Source of the DNA: a virus
Lineage: Duplodnaviria > Caudoviricetes
Virus record (IMG/VR): IMGVR_UViG_3300033068_001847
Span: 64,001 to 128,000 of that record
DNA length: 64,000 nt
Reading direction: 5' to 3' (one strand)
Shown: positions 52,109 through 62,572 of the stretch, one piece after another
How the letters are laid out: each line of letters opens with the position of its first letter
Position numbering within the stretch: the first letter of the stretch is position 1
Made by a program: the position numbers and the translations under genes
The notes under the pieces: generated by a model
What the model saw: the letters and a program-made list of their open reading frames with translations, nothing else
What the model was told of the DNA's origin: nothing
Databases searched by the model: none

Positions 52109-52759
52109 ATGAAAAGTAGAATTAACTTAGATGTTGACTATGCAGGTCAACCATGTATTAAAATTAATCTTCAATCAAGTGAAGATATAAGAGATAAAAC
52201 CTTAACAAGGTTACTCAATCAAGTTGAATATCCTAATAATAACGGTTACAAAATAAAATTCCCGAAAAATATCTTTGTTATCGAAGAGGATTTTGATAAT
52301 AGTAGCTGTTCAAGTGGTTATGGTGAACCGGGAATAACTAAAACTCTAGTACCTATAGATCGAATAGTAGCTCAAAAATTAGGGATGATAGATCCACGCA
52401 CTTCACATTGTGATAATACTCCAGTTCGTTCTTCAATAATTGATGATATAAATAGAGTAAGAGACTTATATAGATTACTAAATTTAGAAACGTCAGATAT
52501 TGATAGAATTGAGAATATTTTGGAAACTGTACCACATTTTAAAAATAAATTAAATAAATACACATTAATCGAATATCCACAGTTTAATACTAAAGTTTTA
52601 TCTTATATTAATGAAAATGATTTCAGTGAACATATATTGATAGATAATGGAAAAATTATGAGTAAATATGATTTTGAAGAGAATTATTTAGGTAAGGTAA
52701 ATCTATCAGATACCCAAGGTTTTAATAACTCACAACAAATATCTGAAAGAATAGAATAA
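52109..52759 (+). CDS. hypothetical protein
   Basis: ORF track. Confidence 0.7.
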   Translation: MKSRINLDVDYAGQPCIKINLQSSEDIRDKTLTRLLNQVEYPNNNGYKIKFPKNIFVIEEDFDNSSCSSGYGEPGITKTLVPIDRIVAQKLGMIDPRTSHCDNTPVRSSIIDDINRVRDLYRLLNLETSDIDRIENILETVPHFKNKLNKYTLIEYPQFNTKVLSYINENDFSEHILIDNGKIMSKYDFEENYLGKVNLSDTQGFNNSQQISERIE

Positions 52760-52762
52760 AAA

Positions 52763-52793
52763 TTTGTAAATTAGAATATTTATACTATATTTG
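52763..52793 (+). promoter_or_regulatory. Bacteroidota-type promoter upstream of tRNA-Glu
   Basis: TTTG-N19-TATATTTG. Confidence 0.7.
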
Positions 52794-52866
52794 CATCAGT
52801 CTAAACATAATTGAAGTTACTCACTTGAATATTGAAACAATACTTTAATTGATTATTAGACATTTT

Positions 52867-52938
52867 GGACCGTTCGTCTAGGGGTTAGGACACGACATTT
52901 TCGATGTTGGAACAGGGGTTCGATTCCCCTACGGTCTA
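52867..52938 (+). tRNA. tRNA-Glu(TTC)
   Basis: Cloverleaf; acceptor GGACCGT/ACGGTCT; loop TT-TTC-GA; GTTCGA T loop. Confidence 0.9.
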
Positions 52939-52953
52939 CATATTATTGAATGT

Positions 52954-53184
52954 ATGAAATTACGATCAGCACAACAATTACATATCGAATGTTCAGTTGA
53001 AGAACTACAACAATTTATGATTGAAGAATTTAAAAAGAAAGGTTTTCTTGTTGGTGCAGATGATGTTAAAGTTATTAATTCAAATTTCATAGAGAAAGAT
53101 ACTACAGAATATGGTGATCACTTCCCATCTTCAAAAGTGGTTGGGTTAGAAATAACTATTGAATATGATGTAAAAGAACAATAA
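52954..53184 (+). CDS. hypothetical protein
   Basis: ORF track. Confidence 0.65.
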   Translation: MKLRSAQQLHIECSVEELQQFMIEEFKKKGFLVGADDVKVINSNFIEKDTTEYGDHFPSSKVVGLEITIEYDVKEQ

Positions 53185-53281
53185 TTAATTTTTAAAAAGG
53201 GGAATGTTATACTCCGAATACGGAAAGCAAGAAAAGATAACACTCACTTGCGCTATTAGTTATTCTAAATATTAATTATTT

Positions 53282-53361
53282 GCTCGAATGGTGGAATTGG
53301 TAGACACGCAGGACTTAAAATCCTGTCCGAAAGGGTGCGAGTTCGATTCTCGCTTCGAGTA
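53282..53361 (+). tRNA. tRNA-Leu(TAA)
   Basis: CAGGA-CT-TAA-AA-TCCTG; variable arm; T loop. Confidence 0.92.
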
Positions 53362-53389
53362 CTAAAAAATTTACTAGATATTTATGATA

Positions 53390-53632
53390 ATGAAAACGTT
53401 ATCAGAACAAATATATAGGATGAATGAATTAGCAGGAGTTATTGTTGAAGCAAATAAAACTCCTTGTCAAACACCAGATTCAACATTTCATACAGAAGTA
53501 AAAGATAATAAGATAACTTGTAGTGTAGATCTACCAATGGATTTAAATCTATCACCAGCAGATGCTAAAATATTAGAAACAAACATTCATAATGCAATGG
53601 AATTAGTTTTAGCCCCATATTTTAAAAAATAA
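53390..53632 (+). CDS. hypothetical (late) protein MKTLSEQIYRMNELAG
   Basis: TATTTATG at 53379-53386 precedes the ATG. Confidence 0.65.
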   Translation: MKTLSEQIYRMNELAGVIVEANKTPCQTPDSTFHTEVKDNKITCSVDLPMDLNLSPADAKILETNIHNAMELVLAPYFKK

Positions 53633-53675
53633 TAACACTGATAATCAACAAGTTATAAAATAAATATAAATAAAG

Positions 53676-53706
53676 TTTGCAAATTTAAAATATTTACTTA
53701 CATTTG
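53676..53706 (+). promoter_or_regulatory. Bacteroidota-type promoter for the leader/tRNA operon
   Basis: TTTG-N19-TACATTTG. Confidence 0.75.
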
Positions 53707-53726
53707 TACTATATATAATTAATAAA

Positions 53727-53834
53727 ATGAAAAATTTAAATACATATCACCGCTCTAGTTCGCTGCAACCGTATCAACACAGTTGCCCTGAAGTGGGTGC
53801 GTTAATATGTAAAGGAGGTGGAAGTACTATTTAA
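53727..53834 (+). CDS. putative attenuator leader peptide MKNLNTYHRSSSLQPYQHSCPEVGALICKGGGSTI
   Basis: A-rich start context (TAATAAA-ATG) 20 nt after the promoter; codons 7-21 match the downstream tRNAs. Confidence 0.75.
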   Translation: MKNLNTYHRSSSLQPYQHSCPEVGALICKGGGSTI

Positions 53835-53865
53835 ATACTGAAACACAATATATAAAGATGCACCC
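53795..53865 (+). promoter_or_regulatory. putative antiterminator helix GGGTGCGTT (53795-53803) : GATGCACCC (53857-53865)
   Basis: 9-bp complementarity with 2 GU pairs, overlapping the terminator 5' arm. Confidence 0.65.
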
Positions 53866-53897
53866 CAAGGATAATAGGATTCTTGGGGTTTTTCTTT
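53862..53897 (+). terminator. intrinsic terminator (attenuator) upstream of the tRNA array
   Basis: ACCCCAAGGAT/ATTCTTGGGGT 11-bp stem followed by TTTTCTTT. Confidence 0.85.
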
Positions 53898-53914
53898 GGA
53901 AGAAACTTTTAAAT

Positions 53915-53989
53915 GACTATATGGCTGAGTGGTCAAAGGCAACGGTCTGCAAAACCGTAAAACCGTTGGTTCAAATCCAACTATAGTCT
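53915..53989 (+). tRNA. tRNA-Cys(GCA)
   Basis: ACGGT-CT-GCA-AA-ACCGT; U discriminator. Confidence 0.92.
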
Positions 53990-54000
53990 CAGAAGAATAA

Positions 54001-54073
54001 CGGGTAGTAGGGAAGTTGGTATCCCGCCACATTTGGGATGTGGAGATCGCAGGTTCGAGTCCTGCTTACCCGA
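54001..54073 (+). tRNA. tRNA-Pro(TGG)
   Basis: CCACA-TT-TGG-GA-TGTGG. Confidence 0.92.
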
Positions 54074-54119
54074 CTGGTTATGGGTTCACAATAGACGTTC
54101 TTTGAATGGAATTGTACTT

Positions 54120-54202
54120 GGAAGATTGGCAGAGTGGTCGATTGCGCTAGTCTTGAAAACTAGAGGATGAAAGTCCCAAAGGTTCGAATCCTTTATCTTC
54201 CG
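54120..54202 (+). tRNA. tRNA-Ser(TGA)
   Basis: CTAGT-CT-TGA-AA-ACTAG; variable arm. Confidence 0.92.
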
Positions 54203-54341
54203 CAAACATAAAAGGTTACCCTGCTTGTTCCGTATGGGGTTATAAATGTGTATAAGTTAACGGAACTCCTGTGGTGTTGCAGCCTAAAAATTGCACTAAA
54301 TATACTGAACAGACCTTTTATCTTTATAAAAAATAGAAATA

Positions 54342-54509
54342 ATGAATAAAAATGAAAAAAAGAAACAGAAATTAAAAGAACGTATTAATGCTTTGGAGCA
54401 GATCGTATTGTTATCATTAACTAAAAAAAGTTCGAATGAAACAGAAATTAATGTACCAGCATATCAACGACAAATAAATGATCTCAAAAAAGAATTGAGA
54501 GATTTATAA
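54342..54509 (+). CDS. small coiled-coil protein, 55 aa, not in ORF track
   Basis: MNKNEKKKQKLKERINALEQIVLLSLTKKSSNETEINVPAYQRQINDLKKELRDL. Confidence 0.65.
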   Translation: MNKNEKKKQKLKERINALEQIVLLSLTKKSSNETEINVPAYQRQINDLKKELRDL

Positions 54510-54515
54510 TAAAAG

Positions 54516-54596
54516 GGGAGTGTTCCAGAGCGGTCAAATGGGACGGACTGTAAATCCGTTACTTCGGTTTCGTAGGTTCGAATCCTTCCACTCCCA
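54516..54596 (+). tRNA. tRNA-Tyr(GTA)
   Basis: ACGGA-CT-GTA-AA-TCCGT. Confidence 0.92.
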
Positions 54597-54601
54597 CAAT
54601 T

Positions 54602-54673
54602 AGTCTATTAGTTCAACGGATAGAATACCTGACTACGGATCAGGTGATAGGAGTTCGAATCTTCTATGGACTA
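54602..54673 (+). tRNA. tRNA-Arg(ACG)
   Basis: CCTGA-CT-ACG-GA-TCAGG. Confidence 0.92.
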
Positions 54674-54680
54674 CAAGAAT

Positions 54681-54760
54681 GCCCTTGTGACTTATGCAAA
54701 CTGGTACAGCTACGAGCCTTAGAACCTCGGTTTTTGAGAGTTCGAATCTCTCCAAGGGTA
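54681..54760 (+). tRNA. tRNA-Leu(TAG), atypical
   Basis: Acceptor GCCCTTG/CAAGGGT; loop CT-TAG-AA; short variable region and odd D arm. Confidence 0.8.
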
Positions 54761-54771
54761 CTTAAAATAAA

Positions 54772-54963
54772 ATGAAAATGATAACAGATATCAGATATAA
54801 CGAAGATGGTAAATTATATGCAAAATTATTAGGACATATAGATATTTACGGAACTGACTTAAATGATTTAAGAACAGCAGCTAGAGAAGCGTTTACATGT
54901 TTCTGTATAATTGCTGAAACTCATGGTCAGGGACTACAGCAGGAATTAGAAGGTTTAATCTAA
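54772..54963 (+). CDS. small protein, possible HicB-like antitoxin fold
   Basis: EDGKLYA...YGTDLNDLRTAAREAF resembles the HicB N-terminal domain pattern. Confidence 0.45.
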   Translation: MKMITDIRYNEDGKLYAKLLGHIDIYGTDLNDLRTAAREAFTCFCIIAETHGQGLQQELEGLI

Positions 54964-54968
54964 TATTT

Positions 54969-55042
54969 TGTTCTGTAGTGTAACTGGTTAACACGTCTGA
55001 TTTTGGTTCAGAAGATTCTAAGTTCGAACCTTAGCAGAACAA
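54969..55042 (+). tRNA. tRNA-Gln(TTG)
   Basis: TCTGA-TT-TTG-GT-TCAGA. Confidence 0.92.
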
Positions 55043-55104
55043 CGGGTTAGACTGTTAATAATTCATAGACTGTCATAAAAACATGGAGCGTAGAATTATA
55101 ATAT

Positions 55105-55178
55105 GGTAAATGTAGCTTAATTGGTAGAGCATCAGCTTGTGGCGTTGAGAGGTGGGGGTTCGATTCCCCTCGTTTACC
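55105..55178 (+). tRNA. tRNA-His(GTG)
   Basis: TCAGC-TT-GTG-GC-GTTGA; encoded G-1 and C73. Confidence 0.92.
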
Positions 55179-55185
55179 CAAAATT

Positions 55186-55268
55186 GGAGAATTGTCAGAG
55201 CGGTCTATCGTGCTTCTTTGCTAAAGAAGTGTGTGAAAGCACCACAGGTTCGAATCCTGTATTCTCCG
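55186..55268 (+). tRNA. tRNA-Ser(GCT)
   Basis: CTTCT-TT-GCT-AA-AGAAG; variable arm. Confidence 0.92.
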
Positions 55269-55285
55269 CTTAATTACCACAAATG

Positions 55286-55314
55286 TGCGGAGAATGTATC
55301 ACTTATTCTCCGCA
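55286..55314. terminator. hairpin between the tRNA array and convergent structural genes
   Basis: TGCGGAGAAT/ATTCTCCGCA. Confidence 0.6.
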
Positions 55315-55321
55315 TTAAATT

Positions 55322-56791
55322 TTAAGTTATAGGAAAACGATTATAACTAGCCATTGGTATAGAAGAATTACTTACAGTATCCCCATTCTGATATTTATAA
55401 GTTAATTTATCGGTTGCGCTGACAGTATTTGTACATTGTAATGTCCATGTAGTACCTGTACCAGAAATACCAGTAACTGGATTATCTGTAACACCTGTTA
55501 CATCTGTTACCACATATGCTTCATATAATGTTTGTACCATCGGAGAATCATAAACTAAAAGTACGGTAGTCCCACTAGCAGTTGCAGAAGTGATTTGTGG
55601 GAGTACAACATCTGTATTAGGATCAATTATAAAAGGATTTTCTGCATACATATTTATTAACCCTGTAGCACTATTAAATTTTACCTCAGCATTAGGAACA
55701 TTAGATTCTACTGTAACACTGATAATAGATGCGTCTGCATTCTGTACAGTAAAGGATGTATTAAAATAAACCAAATGTCTTTCTATTCCACTATATGATA
55801 AATAAGTATATAGTTTATTACCTACTATCTTGTATTGTTTATAAACACCCCTTCTAACTAATTCATAATCAAGAGCTTCTTGTGCTGTATAAATACCTGC
55901 ATTTTCATAATTAGCATGATCTTTAATTATATTACACATTGTGTGAAAGTTAGTAAGAGTATCATCCTCCCCAAGTATACCATGATAAAAATATGGCATA
56001 TATCCAAAAGCATCCCCTATACCAGTACAAGCAGCATAATGGGTATTAACTTGAGTTTCAAAATCATCAATGGCGGTTTGATTAATAGTATTACCGACAT
56101 AATATCTATAATATAGATGTCTTGTGGTATTCATTAAAGTAGGAAACCATCTATTACTAAAACCATAACCATCATCCATACCTGCTACACCCCAAGTACT
56201 CATCCAAATAGGAACATAATTAAGTGGACCTGATGCAGCATAACCAGCATCAGCACTTGGAACTACTCCCGTAGTAGCTAATAATCCAAATTTCTCCCAA
56301 AACTTTTTAGTGTTTAGGGTAATCTCACTATATAAATTAAATCCACCATGATTATAACCATGATTTGTTGGATAACATAATCTATGACCTATTACAATTG
56401 GGTTACCAGTAGTTTCTTTAGAAAATATAGGAATTAATTGTGACCACTTTGCAGCATTAGGATTACCAGAATCTTCATCATGGTCTGGATTAGCATTAAG
56501 AGCTATATTAAATTTAGCTGGTCTTTGATTTCCACAACCATCTGAATAAGTCCAAAGAGGGTAAGTATTACCATCTGCTGTTTCTACACCTTGTAAGTAT
56601 TTATGTAAATAAGTATTGTCTGATGGACCAGCATCATCAGTATATGGTATAAATCCAGTCGTCTTACCTTCTGGCATCTTATTATGTGATAAGACTACAG
56701 AAGGATTAGGTGGTGTATCAAATTCAGTTATAATAGTTATAAGTTGACTATTTTTAACTACTGGTATTTCAAAATTACCTTCTATATTCAT
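55322..56791 (-). CDS. polysaccharide deacetylase (NodB/CE4)-like protein with C-terminal Ig/SwmB-like domain
   Basis: YTDDAG, NHGYNH, FYHGI motifs; PQITSATASGTTVLLVYD. Confidence 0.55.
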   Translation of the reverse strand: MNIEGNFEIPVVKNSQLITIITEFDTPPNPSVVLSHNKMPEGKTTGFIPYTDDAGPSDNTYLHKYLQGVETADGNTYPLWTYSDGCGNQRPAKFNIALNANPDHDEDSGNPNAAKWSQLIPIFSKETTGNPIVIGHRLCYPTNHGYNHGGFNLYSEITLNTKKFWEKFGLLATTGVVPSADAGYAASGPLNYVPIWMSTWGVAGMDDGYGFSNRWFPTLMNTTRHLYYRYYVGNTINQTAIDDFETQVNTHYAACTGIGDAFGYMPYFYHGILGEDDTLTNFHTMCNIIKDHANYENAGIYTAQEALDYELVRRGVYKQYKIVGNKLYTYLSYSGIERHLVYFNTSFTVQNADASIISVTVESNVPNAEVKFNSATGLINMYAENPFIIDPNTDVVLPQITSATASGTTVLLVYDSPMVQTLYEAYVVTDVTGVTDNPVTGISGTGTTWTLQCTNTVSATDKLTYKYQNGDTVSNSSIPMASYNRFPIT

Positions 56792-59079: not shown

Positions 59080-59111
59080 TTTGTAAATTAAAAAATTTAA
59101 TACTATATTTG
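59080..59111 (+). promoter_or_regulatory. Bacteroidota-type promoter for the RNA repair operon
   Basis: TTTG-N20-TATATTTG. Confidence 0.7.
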
Positions 59112-59118
59112 CCATGTT

Positions 59119-59754
59119 ATGAAAGAGTATTTATATAAATATAAAAAAACATATCATTTAGACTTTTCAGAATCAATTACCAGTGATGATAAGATATTGA
59201 AAAGTGTAGATCACTTCCTTGGTAAAAGAATTATTGTGACTGAAAAGATGGATGGAGAATGTACATCTGTTTATACTAATTACTATCATGCCCGTTCATT
59301 GGAATCAGCAAATCATCCTTCCCAAAATCTAATCAAAGGATATTGGGCAGAACGACAATACTTAATACCTGAAGGTTGGCGAGTATGTGGTGAAAATTTA
59401 TATGCACAACATTCAATTATATATGATAATCTTGATGCTTATTTTTATTGTTTTAATACTTGGAATGATAAGAATGAATGTTTATCTTATGATGAAACTT
59501 TAGAATGGTGTGAGTTATTAAATATTGTACATGTACCAGTTTTATATGATGGGATATTTGATTATGATCTCGTTAAAAAGATTTATTTAGATTTAAATAA
59601 AGATTTACATGAGGGTATTGTAATTAGATTAGCAGATTCATTTCATTATAAAGATTTCAGCAAATCATTAGCTAAAGCGGTAAGAAAAAATCATGTTACT
59701 ACAGATGAACATTGGTCTAAACAAGTTATTATACCAAATAAATTAAAACAGTAA
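59119..59754 (+). CDS. ATP-dependent RNA ligase
   Basis: Motif I TEKMDGE, CGENLYA.HSI.Y, EGIVIR, K.VR..HV. Confidence 0.85.
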   Translation: MKEYLYKYKKTYHLDFSESITSDDKILKSVDHFLGKRIIVTEKMDGECTSVYTNYYHARSLESANHPSQNLIKGYWAERQYLIPEGWRVCGENLYAQHSIIYDNLDAYFYCFNTWNDKNECLSYDETLEWCELLNIVHVPVLYDGIFDYDLVKKIYLDLNKDLHEGIVIRLADSFHYKDFSKSLAKAVRKNHVTTDEHWSKQVIIPNKLKQ

Positions 59755-59882
59755 AATGGGAAATAAAAAATTTGATTTGATTAAGACTAACAATAATTTA
59801 ACTGAAGATATTAAATCATTGCAAGAACTTTATATAAAAAATATTTTTGAATTTAAAAATAAATTACTAATTTTACTTCCTG

Positions 59883-60077
59883 ATGTCGAAGAAAAATAAA
59901 AAGATGACTAAATCAGAGGAAATTGAATATAATATTTTATTATTTATTGAAGATTATAAAGATCAATTTAGTTATGTTCCTGATTATAGATATTTAAGAA
60001 CGTTCGCATTTCAAATGCATGAATTATTTAATAAATTAGATGAACAAGAAACAAGTAAGGGAAAAGTTCAGAAATGA
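59883..60077 (+). CDS. hypothetical protein
   Basis: ORF track. Confidence 0.5.
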   Translation: MSKKNKKMTKSEEIEYNILLFIEDYKDQFSYVPDYRYLRTFAFQMHELFNKLDEQETSKGKVQK

Positions 60078-60369
60078 TGTTTTCAAACGTGATAAAAATG
60101 AGTGTGCGATATGCGGTGATAAGTGGTCTAAATTAGATGCTCATCACATTACCAATCGTAATGAGTTTGAAAATGGTGGTTATGTATTGGAGAATGGTGT
60201 AACACTATGTGATAAAGTAGATGGTTGTCATTTTCAAGCCGAAAAATTTTTACAAACTAGGGATTATATAGGTGCATCGTATGAAATAACTCCAGATGGT
60301 TTATATGAACTAATAGGTTCATCATTTGAGAAAGCAGTTGAAGCTGATAAAAAACTAAAACAAAAATAA
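60040..60369 (+). CDS. HNH endonuclease
   Basis: RD...CAICG...DAHHI...NGVTLC...CH. Confidence 0.85.
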   Translation: MNKKQVREKFRNDVFKRDKNECAICGDKWSKLDAHHITNRNEFENGGYVLENGVTLCDKVDGCHFQAEKFLQTRDYIGASYEITPDGLYELIGSSFEKAVEADKKLKQK

Positions 60370-60370
60370 T

Positions 60371-60733
60371 ATGGGATATGATCAAAGAATATTTTTAGGT
60401 GCATGTATTAGAATACCTGCTGATAATGATGAAGTATTAAGGGAATTATTACATGAAACACATGTGGATGTACTAAGTCAGATTAATGGTCATTGGTGTA
60501 AACCAGAAGATGGTTATTATTATGTGACAGCTAATGAGTATAGAAATGGTAATGATTATGGTAAACATATTTCTGAAGGTGATAGAGAAGGTGGTGAACG
60601 TATTGACACTGGAACATTACTAATGTGGTTGAATAACTTCAATGAGGATTATAAAGAAGAAATAAGAATATTGAAAGAAGCATATGGTGATACAAGTATA
60701 ATTGCAGTTTTTTTAGTAAATGGCGGTAGTTAA
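60371..60733 (+). CDS. hypothetical protein
   Basis: ORF track. Confidence 0.7.
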   Translation: MGYDQRIFLGACIRIPADNDEVLRELLHETHVDVLSQINGHWCKPEDGYYYVTANEYRNGNDYGKHISEGDREGGERIDTGTLLMWLNNFNEDYKEEIRILKEAYGDTSIIAVFLVNGGS

Positions 60734-60744
60734 AAAATAAAGTA

Positions 60745-61662
60745 ATGAGAAAGAATAAAATCGTAAGAGTATTAATTGGACCTCCAGCCAGTGGTAAAAC
60801 TACATGGACTAAACAGTTCTTGTTGAGAAACCGTGATTGGGTGTCAGTGAATCGTGATGCCTTTCGGTTTATGTTCAGAGATGAACCTACACCTGAGCCA
60901 CGAGTAGAGGATCTTATAACTGAAATGCAAGCTGAAGCTATTGTTAAAGCTCTAAATAAAGGACTTAACGTAATAGTAGATAATACTAATTTAAGACATA
61001 AATATTTAAATGAAATTATTCAACTAGTTCAATTTAAAGCAGATGTTGAATTTCAAATATTTGATGCACCATTACATGTATGTCAGAAACGAGATAAGGA
61101 ACGTGCTAAATCAGTAGGTGATGAAGTTGTTAATAAAATGCACAACCAGTATAAAAACATCATTGATAGTTTTGGCTTTGAGAACCGTTCTAAGCGACCT
61201 TCATACGAAGATAGGTTTATTCCTCTTGTACAAGATCAAACACTCCCACAAGCTGTTATATTTGATATAGACGGTACAATAGCTTTGATGGGAAGAAGAA
61301 GTGAATATGATTGGAATAAAGTAGATGTAGATGATCCTCATGATATAGTTATTGAGCAAATAAAACTTCACCAAGATAAAGGGCGTAAGATTTTACTGGT
61401 TTCAGGTAGGGATGAAGAAGCTAGGGAAAAAACACTCTACTGGCTTGAGTATTATAATGTTTATTTTGATGAATTATTAATGCGTCCTAAAGATGATATG
61501 AGAAAAGATTATATTATTAAAAAAGAGATTTTTAATAATCAAATCAAAGACCGATATAATGTATGGGCTGTGTATGATGATCGCTTACAAGTAATTAAAA
61601 AAGCTTGGTTTGAATTAGGATTATTTTGTTTCAATGTTAATCAAGGGATGAAAGATTTTTAA
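60745..61662 (+). CDS. pseT: polynucleotide 5'-kinase / 3'-phosphatase (T4 Pnk-like)
   Basis: GPPASGKTT, NRD, DNTN kinase motifs; FDIDGT, SGR, DDR HAD phosphatase motifs. Confidence 0.92.
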   Translation: MRKNKIVRVLIGPPASGKTTWTKQFLLRNRDWVSVNRDAFRFMFRDEPTPEPRVEDLITEMQAEAIVKALNKGLNVIVDNTNLRHKYLNEIIQLVQFKADVEFQIFDAPLHVCQKRDKERAKSVGDEVVNKMHNQYKNIIDSFGFENRSKRPSYEDRFIPLVQDQTLPQAVIFDIDGTIALMGRRSEYDWNKVDVDDPHDIVIEQIKLHQDKGRKILLVSGRDEEAREKTLYWLEYYNVYFDELLMRPKDDMRKDYIIKKEIFNNQIKDRYNVWAVYDDRLQVIKKAWFELGLFCFNVNQGMKDF

Positions 61663-61922
61663 TCAACTAAGCCACTTTTTTTTAAAATACTGTAATAATT
61701 TGGGTTTTCCATTAGATGATCTAAAGCTATTTCTAAAGCTAATTTTTTATTTTTAGTATGTTCCATTTCAGTAGGTACTCCAATTTTTAATTGGGATTCT
61801 ATTTTTGAAATTGAGACTTTATGTTTTTTAGCAATAGATTCAATACTTTGATAATCACTTATACCGCCTTTTATTGTATCCGATATTTTTTTATATTGAG
61901 CTTCGGTTATTATAATTTTCAT
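61659..61922 (-). CDS. DUF5661-like small protein with MKIIITEAQY motif
   Basis: G...EMEHT...A.EIALDHL.E.P.YY; TATTTATA at 61934-61941. Confidence 0.7.
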   Translation of the reverse strand: MKIIITEAQYKKISDTIKGGISDYQSIESIAKKHKVSISKIESQLKIGVPTEMEHTKNKKLALEIALDHLMENPNYYSILKKSGLVD

Positions 61923-62005
61923 AATATGTTTTTTATAAATATTTCTAAATTAGAAAAATAATAACTATATTTGATTATTATTATGAATTATAACTTAAAA
62001 AGGTT

Positions 62006-62572
62006 ATGGAAAAGATTGAATTATTTGAAAATTTTGATATAGGTGTAGATCCAAATACGTGTTTTGATATCTTATCAAAAAATATCAAATGGCACGAAAC
62101 GTTATTGAGTGTAAATAATGAGCCAGTTAAAATTAAAAGAAAAATGGCTTATGTCTATGATAGAGTTGTAACTTATTATTATAGTACATTACACTTTGAA
62201 GGTGAATTATGGATTCCTGTATTAGAAACGATCAGAGATAAAGTAAATGGATTTACTGGTATTGAATTTAATTCAGTATTGTTGAATTACTATAAAAATG
62301 GTAAGGATGAAATAAAATGGCACTCTGATAAAGAAGAAAATTTAGGTGATATAAGCGAATCAGTTATTGCTACAGTAAATTTAGGAGCTACCAGAAAATT
62401 CTGGTATTTAAATAAAGCTACTGGTGATAAAGACTTTTACTCTGTAGCCAACGGTGGATTGTTAATGATGAATGCTGGTTTTCAAAATGAGTATTTACAT
62501 GCAATATTACCTGAAAAACAAATAAAAGATCCAAGGATTAGTTTAACATTTAGAAAAGTAACTCATGACTAA
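62006..62572 (+). CDS. AlkB-family 2OG-Fe(II) dioxygenase
   Basis: FNSVLLNYY..G.D.I.WHSD...LGATR.F...H...RISLTFR. Confidence 0.9.
   Translation: MEKIELFENFDIGVDPNTCFDILSKNIKWHETLLSVNNEPVKIKRKMAYVYDRVVTYYYSTLHFEGELWIPVLETIRDKVNGFTGIEFNSVLLNYYKNGKDEIKWHSDKEENLGDISESVIATVNLGATRKFWYLNKATGDKDFYSVANGGLLMMNAGFQNEYLHAILPEKQIKDPRISLTFRKVTHD

Follow-up and report, generated by a model that had tools for sequence, protein, structure and literature searches.

Between a promoter-like site and a block of phage tRNA genes, the locus studied here carries a short open reading frame and an intrinsic terminator, and this arrangement raises the question of how, and in response to which signal, the tRNA genes are transcribed. 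Why phages carry tRNA genes at all is debated, with codon compensation and escape from tRNA-targeting defences among the proposed reasons (e.g. PMC10264068). The locus lies in a stretch of 64,000 nucleotides (positions 64,001 to 128,000 of IMG/VR record IMGVR_UViG_3300033068_001847), called the window hereafter, to which coordinates refer unless another sequence is named. The source record is a 184-kb myovirus with 29% G+C, and this value together with genes lacking Shine-Dalgarno sites suggested a host among the Bacteroidota, which remains a presumption. A first-pass annotation, made from sequence alone, had read the region as a switch of mutually exclusive antiterminator and terminator helices under ribosome control. 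We found this trp-type 1:2 / 2:3 / 3:4 interpretation supported, with all sequence-level expectations met, and we consider it likely that the locus encodes a leader-peptide (ribosome-mediated) transcription attenuator that gates the tRNA operon. Translation of the leader, stalling of ribosomes on it and read-through of the terminator are inferences.

The leader and the tRNA unit

The order on the plus strand is a promoter-like site, a 35-codon ORF, a terminator, a gap of 25 nt from its U tract to tRNA-Cys, the tRNA unit and a second terminator. The elements of this layout other than the first terminator are the following:

53676 to 53706, plus strand: promoter-like site of the Bacteroidota type, found as a pattern match (TTTG at 53676-53679, 19 nt, TAcaTTTG at 53699-53706); activity not shown
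53727 to 53834, plus strand: leader ORF of 35 codons with its stop at 53832-53834, preceded by A-rich sequence without a Shine-Dalgarno site, like the phage's other genes; translation inferred
53745 to 53789, plus strand: sensor run, leader codons 7-21 (Y H R S S S L Q P Y Q H S C P)
53915 to 55269, plus strand: tRNA unit, proposed to be regulated, with 8 tRNAs, 1 aberrant tRNA-like element and 2 small ORFs
54342 to 54509 and 54772 to 54963, plus strand: the small ORFs interspersed in the tRNA unit
55285 to 55315, plus strand: terminator at the end of the unit

Transcription is inferred to start about 15 nt ahead of the 35-codon ORF. Only two TAnnTTTG boxes were found in 52700-55400, one at 52786 preceding un-gated genes for tRNA-Glu and tRNA-Leu(UAA) and the other at 53699 preceding the leader. 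A motif-based search, the only kind carried out, revealed no -7 box within the tRNA unit before its end terminator, and the tRNAs should therefore be expressed only via read-through of the strong terminator behind the leader. Three sites in the window were nearly alike (TTTGyAAATT...TAnaTTTG), namely 52763-52793, 53676-53706 and 59080-59111, which precede tRNA-Glu, the leader and an RNA ligase gene, respectively, and which possibly form one promoter class.

The tRNA unit encodes, in this order, tRNA-Cys, Pro, Ser(UGA), Tyr, Arg(ACG), the aberrant tRNA-like element, Gln, His and Ser(GCU). In the aberrant element (54681-54761) the acceptor stem is perfect, and a T arm and the discriminator A73 are present. 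The element scored 19.8 bits in Rfam (cut-off 29) and was not called by ARAGORN at default settings; relaxed settings returned Arg(ACG) with a poor anticodon stem. A reading as Leu(UAG) is also possible and gives a good anticodon stem at the cost of an overlong D region. Whether it is a ninth tRNA is uncertain. The UAG reading would fit the CTG codon of the leader as well as the CTA and CTT codons of the variants described below.

The leader codons match the tRNAs encoded behind the terminator. Among all 15-codon windows without a stop in the six frames of the 184-kb genome (137,694 windows), the sensor run ranked first for codons read by the downstream tRNAs. The match is 14/15 if U34 reads a whole four-codon box, 12/15 under strict wobble, and 15/15 when the tRNA-like element with its UAG anticodon hairpin is counted; the TCT and CCT codons need four-way U34 reading, and CTG is matched by the aberrant element only. 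All 8 tRNAs are represented in the run, which is the case within 15 codons at just 3 loci genome-wide. The run also contains several of the rarest codons of the phage, CGC, TCG, CTG, TGC and CCG (per 1000 codons, 0.5 for CGC, 0.7 for TGC, 1.5 for CTG and 1.9 for TCG), and codon usage of the leader ORF differs from that of the phage's own genes. Cysteine has a single codon in the run, at the borderline position 20. The codon-tRNA match is thus shown, while translation of the ORF is inferred; the leader peptide was absent from the protein collection searched. A perfect Shine-Dalgarno-like AAGGAGGTG is present within the leader tail (53814-53821), though the genes of this phage do not use such sites.

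Exclusive helices and the position of the ribosome

The RNA elements of the proposed switch, which partly overlap each other and the leader ORF, are the following:

53741 to 53811, plus strand: 1:2 hairpin (anti-antiterminator) of 71 nt, its 5' half over the sensor codons and its 3' half including region 2
53787 to 53811, plus strand: region 2, the 5' arm of the antiterminator, with the core GGGUGCGUU at 53795-53803 (leader codons 23-26)
53849 to 53870, plus strand: region 3, the 3' arm of the antiterminator, with the core GAUGCACCC at 53857-53865, overlapping the 5' arm of the terminator from 53862
53862 to 53897, plus strand: intrinsic terminator (3:4) with an 11-bp stem (53862-53872 / 53879-53889), a 6-nt loop and a U5CU3 tract

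According to the first-pass annotation, GGGTGCGTT (53795-53803) pairs with GATGCACCC (53857-53865), and the latter includes the ACCC base of the terminator stem. Both claims held: the helix has 9 pairs, two of them G-U, at -13.8 kcal/mol, and ACCC occupies 53862-53865 of the stem 53862-53889. The helix had been understated, and its real extent is a longer, interrupted one of 15 bp (-19.2 kcal/mol) that continues past a 2x2 internal loop by pairing of 53806-53811 with 53849-53854. G53793-C53866 and CCU (53787-89) with AGG (53868-70) may be added optionally. The 2:3 helix can take up as many as 9 of the 11 bases in the terminator 5' arm (shared positions 53862-53870), and the hairpin 53795-53865 alone (-19.2 kcal/mol) is on par with the terminator (-15.7 kcal/mol for the core and -19.4 with its outer extension). 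The best duplex between leader and region 3 reached -21.7 kcal/mol; dinucleotide-shuffled leaders gave -10.7 on average (sd 2.5), and none of the 2000 shuffles reached the value of the real leader. The claim of mutually exclusive antiterminator and terminator helices therefore held, and the complementarity exceeds chance. As another measure we had tried the fraction of the terminator 5' arm that is paired upstream, and discarded it as too noisy.

A possible 1:2 protector helix had been drawn between CACCGCT (53748-53754) and AGTGGGTG. As drawn it failed, being weak (-6.3 kcal/mol) and in a different register from the minimum-energy fold. A 1:2 helix nevertheless exists, as the larger hairpin 53741-53811 (-23.6 kcal/mol, z = -3.2, 3/1000 shuffles), in which CGCUCUA (53751-57) pairs with UGGG.UGCG (53794-53801). 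Region 2 is therefore common to the 1:2 and 2:3 helices. It is possible that this hairpin doubles as a pause hairpin. The remaining claims held as made: the quoted sequences were all found at the positions given for them, as were the ORF, its stop at 53834 and the repeats of Y, H, S, Q and P among the sensor codons.

In the proposed mechanism, the input would be the decoding rate at codons served by the controlled tRNAs. During smooth decoding the ribosome would cover region 2 (codons 23-26) and enter the would-be antiterminator loop up to the stop at 53832-53834; region 3 would stay free, the 3:4 terminator would form and the tRNA genes would remain untranscribed. If any of the sensed tRNAs were scarce, the ribosome would stall in codons 7-20 and occupy region 1, leaving region 2 exposed. 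Once region 3 is made, region 2 would pair with it (up to 15-19 pairs, about -19 kcal/mol), thereby sequestering the terminator 5' arm and letting RNA polymerase read into the tRNA genes. In the absence of translation, region 2 would be held in the 1:2 hairpin, with termination as the outcome. The physiological trigger is inferred; depletion of tRNAs by host nucleases and a mismatch between codons and supply are candidates.

We modelled the effect of the ribosome by folding with a masked footprint, from A-site-15 to A-site+12, in which pairs spanning the ribosome were forbidden, on a transcript that stops short of the terminator 3' arm (pre-arm-4 transcript). The antiterminator had a probability of 0.77-0.99 with the A site at codons 2-20, of 0.03 at codon 21, of 0 at codons 22-36, and of 0.17 without a ribosome. 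The last permissive codon shifted only between 19 and 21 for 3' edges of the footprint from A+15 to A+9. With this boundary, the sensor run (codons 7-21) occupies the permissive zone right up to its limit. The last 9 codons of the leader and its stop sit within the 37-nt antiterminator loop, so that a ribosome proceeding without a stall would hinder closure of the helix. It had been claimed that a ribosome moving on to the stop would disrupt the 2:3 pairing and that one stalled in codons 7-21 would mostly leave it free; masked folding supported this as a prediction of the model, with the boundary at the end of that run. The placement of the sensor codons relative to the ribosome footprint is thus shown, and stalling at them is inferred.

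When the full transcript was folded at equilibrium, the terminator had a probability of at least 0.84 at every ribosome position. The first-pass annotation had named dominance of the terminator regardless of masking as an outcome that would refute its reading, and at equilibrium this outcome was formally met. We applied the same script to E. coli trpL (NC_000913.3). On the pre-arm-4 transcript the antiterminator reached 0.94 at codons 8-12, both Trp codons included, and 0.00 without a ribosome, and at equilibrium the terminator was at least 0.94 everywhere. This refutation test is non-discriminating, because a proven attenuator gives the same equilibrium outcome. The model predicts that the choice between terminator and antiterminator must be kinetic, as in trp, and it depends on folding kinetics and on ribosome-polymerase coupling. 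Such coupling of transcription and translation is inferred for the presumed Bacteroidota host, and to our knowledge there are no studies of ribosome-polymerase coupling in this group.

Relatives, variants and cultured phages

The phage stands isolated in the public collections searched, and only one relative with the full element was found. This relative, a 1.8-kb Logan contig (L020), was reached through a homologue of the 55-aa ORF in the tRNA unit. Its block from leader to terminator is nearly invariant, against a mean column identity of 85% for the entire alignment, while the tRNA genes behind the leader are visibly more diverged than the leader block. Region 2, region 3 and both terminator arms are identical, and the terminator differs in the loop only. 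The leader frame stays open despite changes in the tail, with a deletion of 3 nt in frame; the tail of the leader peptide itself is not conserved. The -7 box of the promoter-like site is identical in this relative and unchanged in a variant from run X2. Conservation of the element in a relative is thus shown. No covariation was seen in the 2:3 helix, both arms being invariant in this sole full relative.

Sensor codons 10-11 are changed from TCT AGT to CTT TCC in L020, and in the X2 variant CAC is replaced by CTA at codon 8, TCT by CAT at codon 10 and AGT by TCC at codon 11. All of the changed codons remain in the set Y, H, R, S, L, Q, P and C. We estimated the chance of four replacements staying in the set at roughly 0.004-0.03. 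The 1:2 hairpin re-forms in L020 in a shifted register (-21.2 kcal/mol) and also in the partial X2 variant. The ribosome boundary is unchanged in L020, and on the pre-arm-4 transcript the antiterminator is favoured there also without a ribosome. The default of termination in the absence of translation is therefore not robust, and the role of the 1:2 hairpin, which in L020 is weaker relative to 2:3, is less certain. In the terminator, the variants from runs X1 and X2 lack exactly U53872 and A53879, both partners of the loop-closing pair. The comparison with these two variants was partial, with 2 differences and 2 gaps in 53760-53817 unresolved, and it does not bear on covariation in the 1:2 and 2:3 helices. 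The aberrant tRNA-like element was kept in run X2 (4 differences).

Comparison of 53560-54350 with L020:230-1045 revealed mosaic conservation. The leader and attenuator and a 127-nt element are nearly identical, divergence appears far greater in the genes for tRNA-Cys, Pro and Ser, and upstream of the promoter the two sequences carry unrelated genes. The 127-nt element is the spacer 54205-54331 between tRNA-Ser(UGA) and the 55-aa ORF. It is missing in the X2 relative, where TTAATG stands in its place; its fold was not unusually stable (z = -1.06) and it had no Rfam match. Directly 3' of its tRNA-Pro, L020 has a match to an HDV-like ribozyme (L020:719-788, RF02682, 37.5 bits, gathering score 44), for which the window holds no counterpart after its own tRNA-Pro. 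After tRNA-Tyr, the array of L020 is interrupted by an ORF (L020:1358-1825) whose HNH-endonuclease signature is weak (16.8 bits for Pfam HNH, under the cut-off).

Other searches yielded little. The codon-degenerate leader pattern had no match in viral_contigs, the 24-mer of region 2 none in genome_contigs, and for the 63-aa ORF no homologues were found. The 82-aa neighbour had no relatives in viral_contigs, and the 373-aa neighbour had one 35%-identical relative each in viral_contigs and metagenome_contigs. The genome that carries one of these 35% relatives (G001) has its tRNA array elsewhere, with no terminator on the tRNA strand. A 22-mer of tRNA-Cys matched four unrelated phage contigs (L015-L018), and in the array gaps inspected in two of them, L016 and L017, there was no obvious leader-plus-terminator cassette. 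No comparable leader was present on the contig of a GC-richer phage (L021) with a 53%-identical homologue of the 55-aa ORF. Judged by G001, L016 and L017, and as far as the inspected gaps go, the leader device is not universal.

The same layout was found in two cultured phages. Cellulophaga phage phi4:1 (NC_021788.1) carries an unannotated 22-codon ORF (87065-87133; L025:5066-5134) starting M K I Q R L H L Q E L E Q P, preceded by a TTTG...TAtgTTTG site. Eleven consecutive codons (Q R L H L Q E L E Q P) match, isoacceptor by isoacceptor, all 7 tRNAs past the terminator, which are tRNA-Pro, Glu, Gln, His, Leu(UAG), Leu(UAA) and Arg(ACG). Its region 2, UCGGGAGG, follows directly after the run and pairs with the terminator 5' arm (-11.8 kcal/mol). 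This leader begins about 5 nt past the -7 box, and its mRNA is possibly leaderless. Further along, 30 of the 39 residues of phi4:1 gp075 (87989-88108; L025:5990-6109) belong to the set of the next 11 tRNAs, and a terminator follows. The gene is annotated as 'hypothetical protein', and its annotated TTG start falls inside a promoter-like site.

Caulobacter phage phiCbK (JX100813) has an ORF with the run QFVRQIQVVRNI (Q F V R Q I Q V V R N I) ahead of an annotated terminator and of tRNA-Phe, Val, Ile, Ile, Val, Gln, Gln and Gly, and codons 19-22 of this leader form an 11-bp complement of the terminator 5' arm. In phiCbK gp083, P, K, L and S make up 23 of 45 residues, and the gene precedes tRNA genes for Pro, Pro, Lys, Lys, Leu (three) and Ser (two). 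The leaders of both phages share with the one in the window a promoter, a mini-ORF that spells the downstream tRNAs, a region 2 after the run, a terminator and a tRNA block, but they have no sequence similarity to it and differ in tRNA sets and leader lengths. No description of the phi4:1 and phiCbK leaders was found in the literature searched.

Known systems, rival explanations and biological meaning

The element meets in its sequence what is expected of an attenuator: a leader ORF with regulatory codons, a terminator before the genes, a 2:3 helix exclusive with 3:4, and a 1:2 helix over the sensor codons. The expectation that regulatory codons match what the operon supplies is met in a modified sense, since the operon encodes the tRNAs rather than making the amino acid. 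In E. coli and Salmonella, trpL, hisL, leuL, pheL, thrL and ilvL likewise combine a short translated leader, a run of regulatory codons, exclusive 1:2 / 2:3 / 3:4 helices and an intrinsic terminator. Rare codons as sensors are another shared trait, the CUA codons of leuL being rare sensor codons, and trpL behaved likewise in the footprint model. Leaders responding to several amino acids exist among them as well, thrL and ilvL being multivalent. Unlike these attenuators of amino-acid operons, the phage element would regulate tRNA genes and not biosynthetic enzymes, and its leader samples seven or eight amino acids with one or few codons each, mirroring the tRNA repertoire. Its ORF also extends 9 codons beyond region 2, with the stop in the antiterminator loop and not just before region 2. 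None of the Rfam leader families (Trp_leader, His_leader, Leu_leader, Thr_leader etc.) matched in 52500-55500, where only tRNAs were found at E up to 1.

Two other systems are close in logic. The pheM leader of E. coli pheST is a case of leader-peptide attenuation of an aminoacyl-tRNA synthetase. As proposed for the phage, ribosome-mediated attenuation there controls a decoding component according to the decoding of matching codons; pheM-pheST involves one amino acid and a protein product, whereas the phage element involves many codon families and tRNA products. T-box elements also make a terminator/antiterminator decision that reports tRNA state, but they bind uncharged tRNA directly, without translation, through Stem I, a specifier loop and the T-box sequence; no Rfam T-box match was obtained in 52500-55500. 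We found no description of leader-peptide control of tRNA genes in the full-text literature searched.

Three rival explanations were considered, each of which we regard as very unlikely. In the first, the locus is an attenuator that works differently, either through another antiterminator, such as pairing of the Shine-Dalgarno-like GGAGGUGG (53814-53821) with CACCCC (53860-53866), or through steric occlusion of the terminator by the ribosome. In its favour, region 3 pairs with GGAGGUGG and not with region 2 in the untranslated pre-arm-4 fold of the window. Against it, GGAGGUGG is replaced by GGAGAUGU in L020 and is thus not conserved, whereas region 2 is identical there. It lies at codons 30-32, where codon-specific control by a ribosome stalled on the sensor codons is not expected. 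With regard to occlusion, repression by a terminating ribosome requires a distance of few base pairs (PMC4824070), and the stop codon ends 27 nt before the stem, which is too far.

The second rival holds that an ordinary or chance ORF precedes a leaky terminator, that the tRNAs are made by constitutive partial read-through or with the help of a phage antitermination factor, and that the codon match is coincidental. There are no expression data to exclude this, leader ORFs of such type are not called by gene finders, and the peptide tail is unconserved. Against it stand the first rank of the sensor run among 137,694 windows with placement exactly before the array and coverage of all 8 tRNAs, the ORF codon usage unlike that of phage genes, and a complementarity that beats 2000 of 2000 shuffles. 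The codon-matched layout moreover recurs in phi4:1 and phiCbK with other tRNA sets, and altered sensor codons remain in the set. The third rival places a hidden promoter, specific to the phage, in the conserved AATATATAAAG block (53846-53856), from which transcription would start inside the terminator 5' arm and make the tRNAs leader-independent. In its favour, the block is identical in L020 and AT-rich in the manner of a -10 element. Against it, the motif does not recur genome-wide (TATATAAAG has 6 occurrences per strand, compared to 5.8 expected, and AATATATAAAG has one), and the block is accounted for as the 3' arm of the 6-bp extension of the antiterminator.

The preferred reading thus remains a ribosome-mediated attenuator ahead of the tRNA operon. 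About 4-7 kb downstream of the tRNA unit, at 59119-62572, the same strand encodes an RNA ligase (PHROG 24030/34045) as well as a polynucleotide kinase (PHROG 505) and a repair protein of AlkB-like type (PHROG 21963). This neighbourhood is compatible with a role related to tRNA damage, possibly so and without proof.

A bolder reading, which we put forward only as a possibility, is that phage tRNA arrays are inducible regulons, in which a multi-codon leader reads live decoding capacity and switches on replacement tRNAs and co-transcribed small ORFs only when needed. Capacity would fall via cleavage of host tRNA by anticodon nucleases, decay of host tRNA or codon-usage mismatch. RNA ligase, polynucleotide kinase and AlkB-like genes are encoded about 4 kb downstream of the unit, and on this reading the attenuator might even be part of a counter-defence circuit widespread in tRNA-rich phages. 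Leaders of this kind are missed or mis-annotated by gene callers, and phi4:1 and phiCbK, which share the layout, offer cultured systems for direct tests. If the proposed attenuator is true, classical attenuation would gain a new class of target genes and a sensor with many inputs instead of one or three amino acids. The phage would then gauge the decoding of its codons and supply tRNAs on demand, and the debate on why phages carry tRNA genes would turn into a testable circuit.
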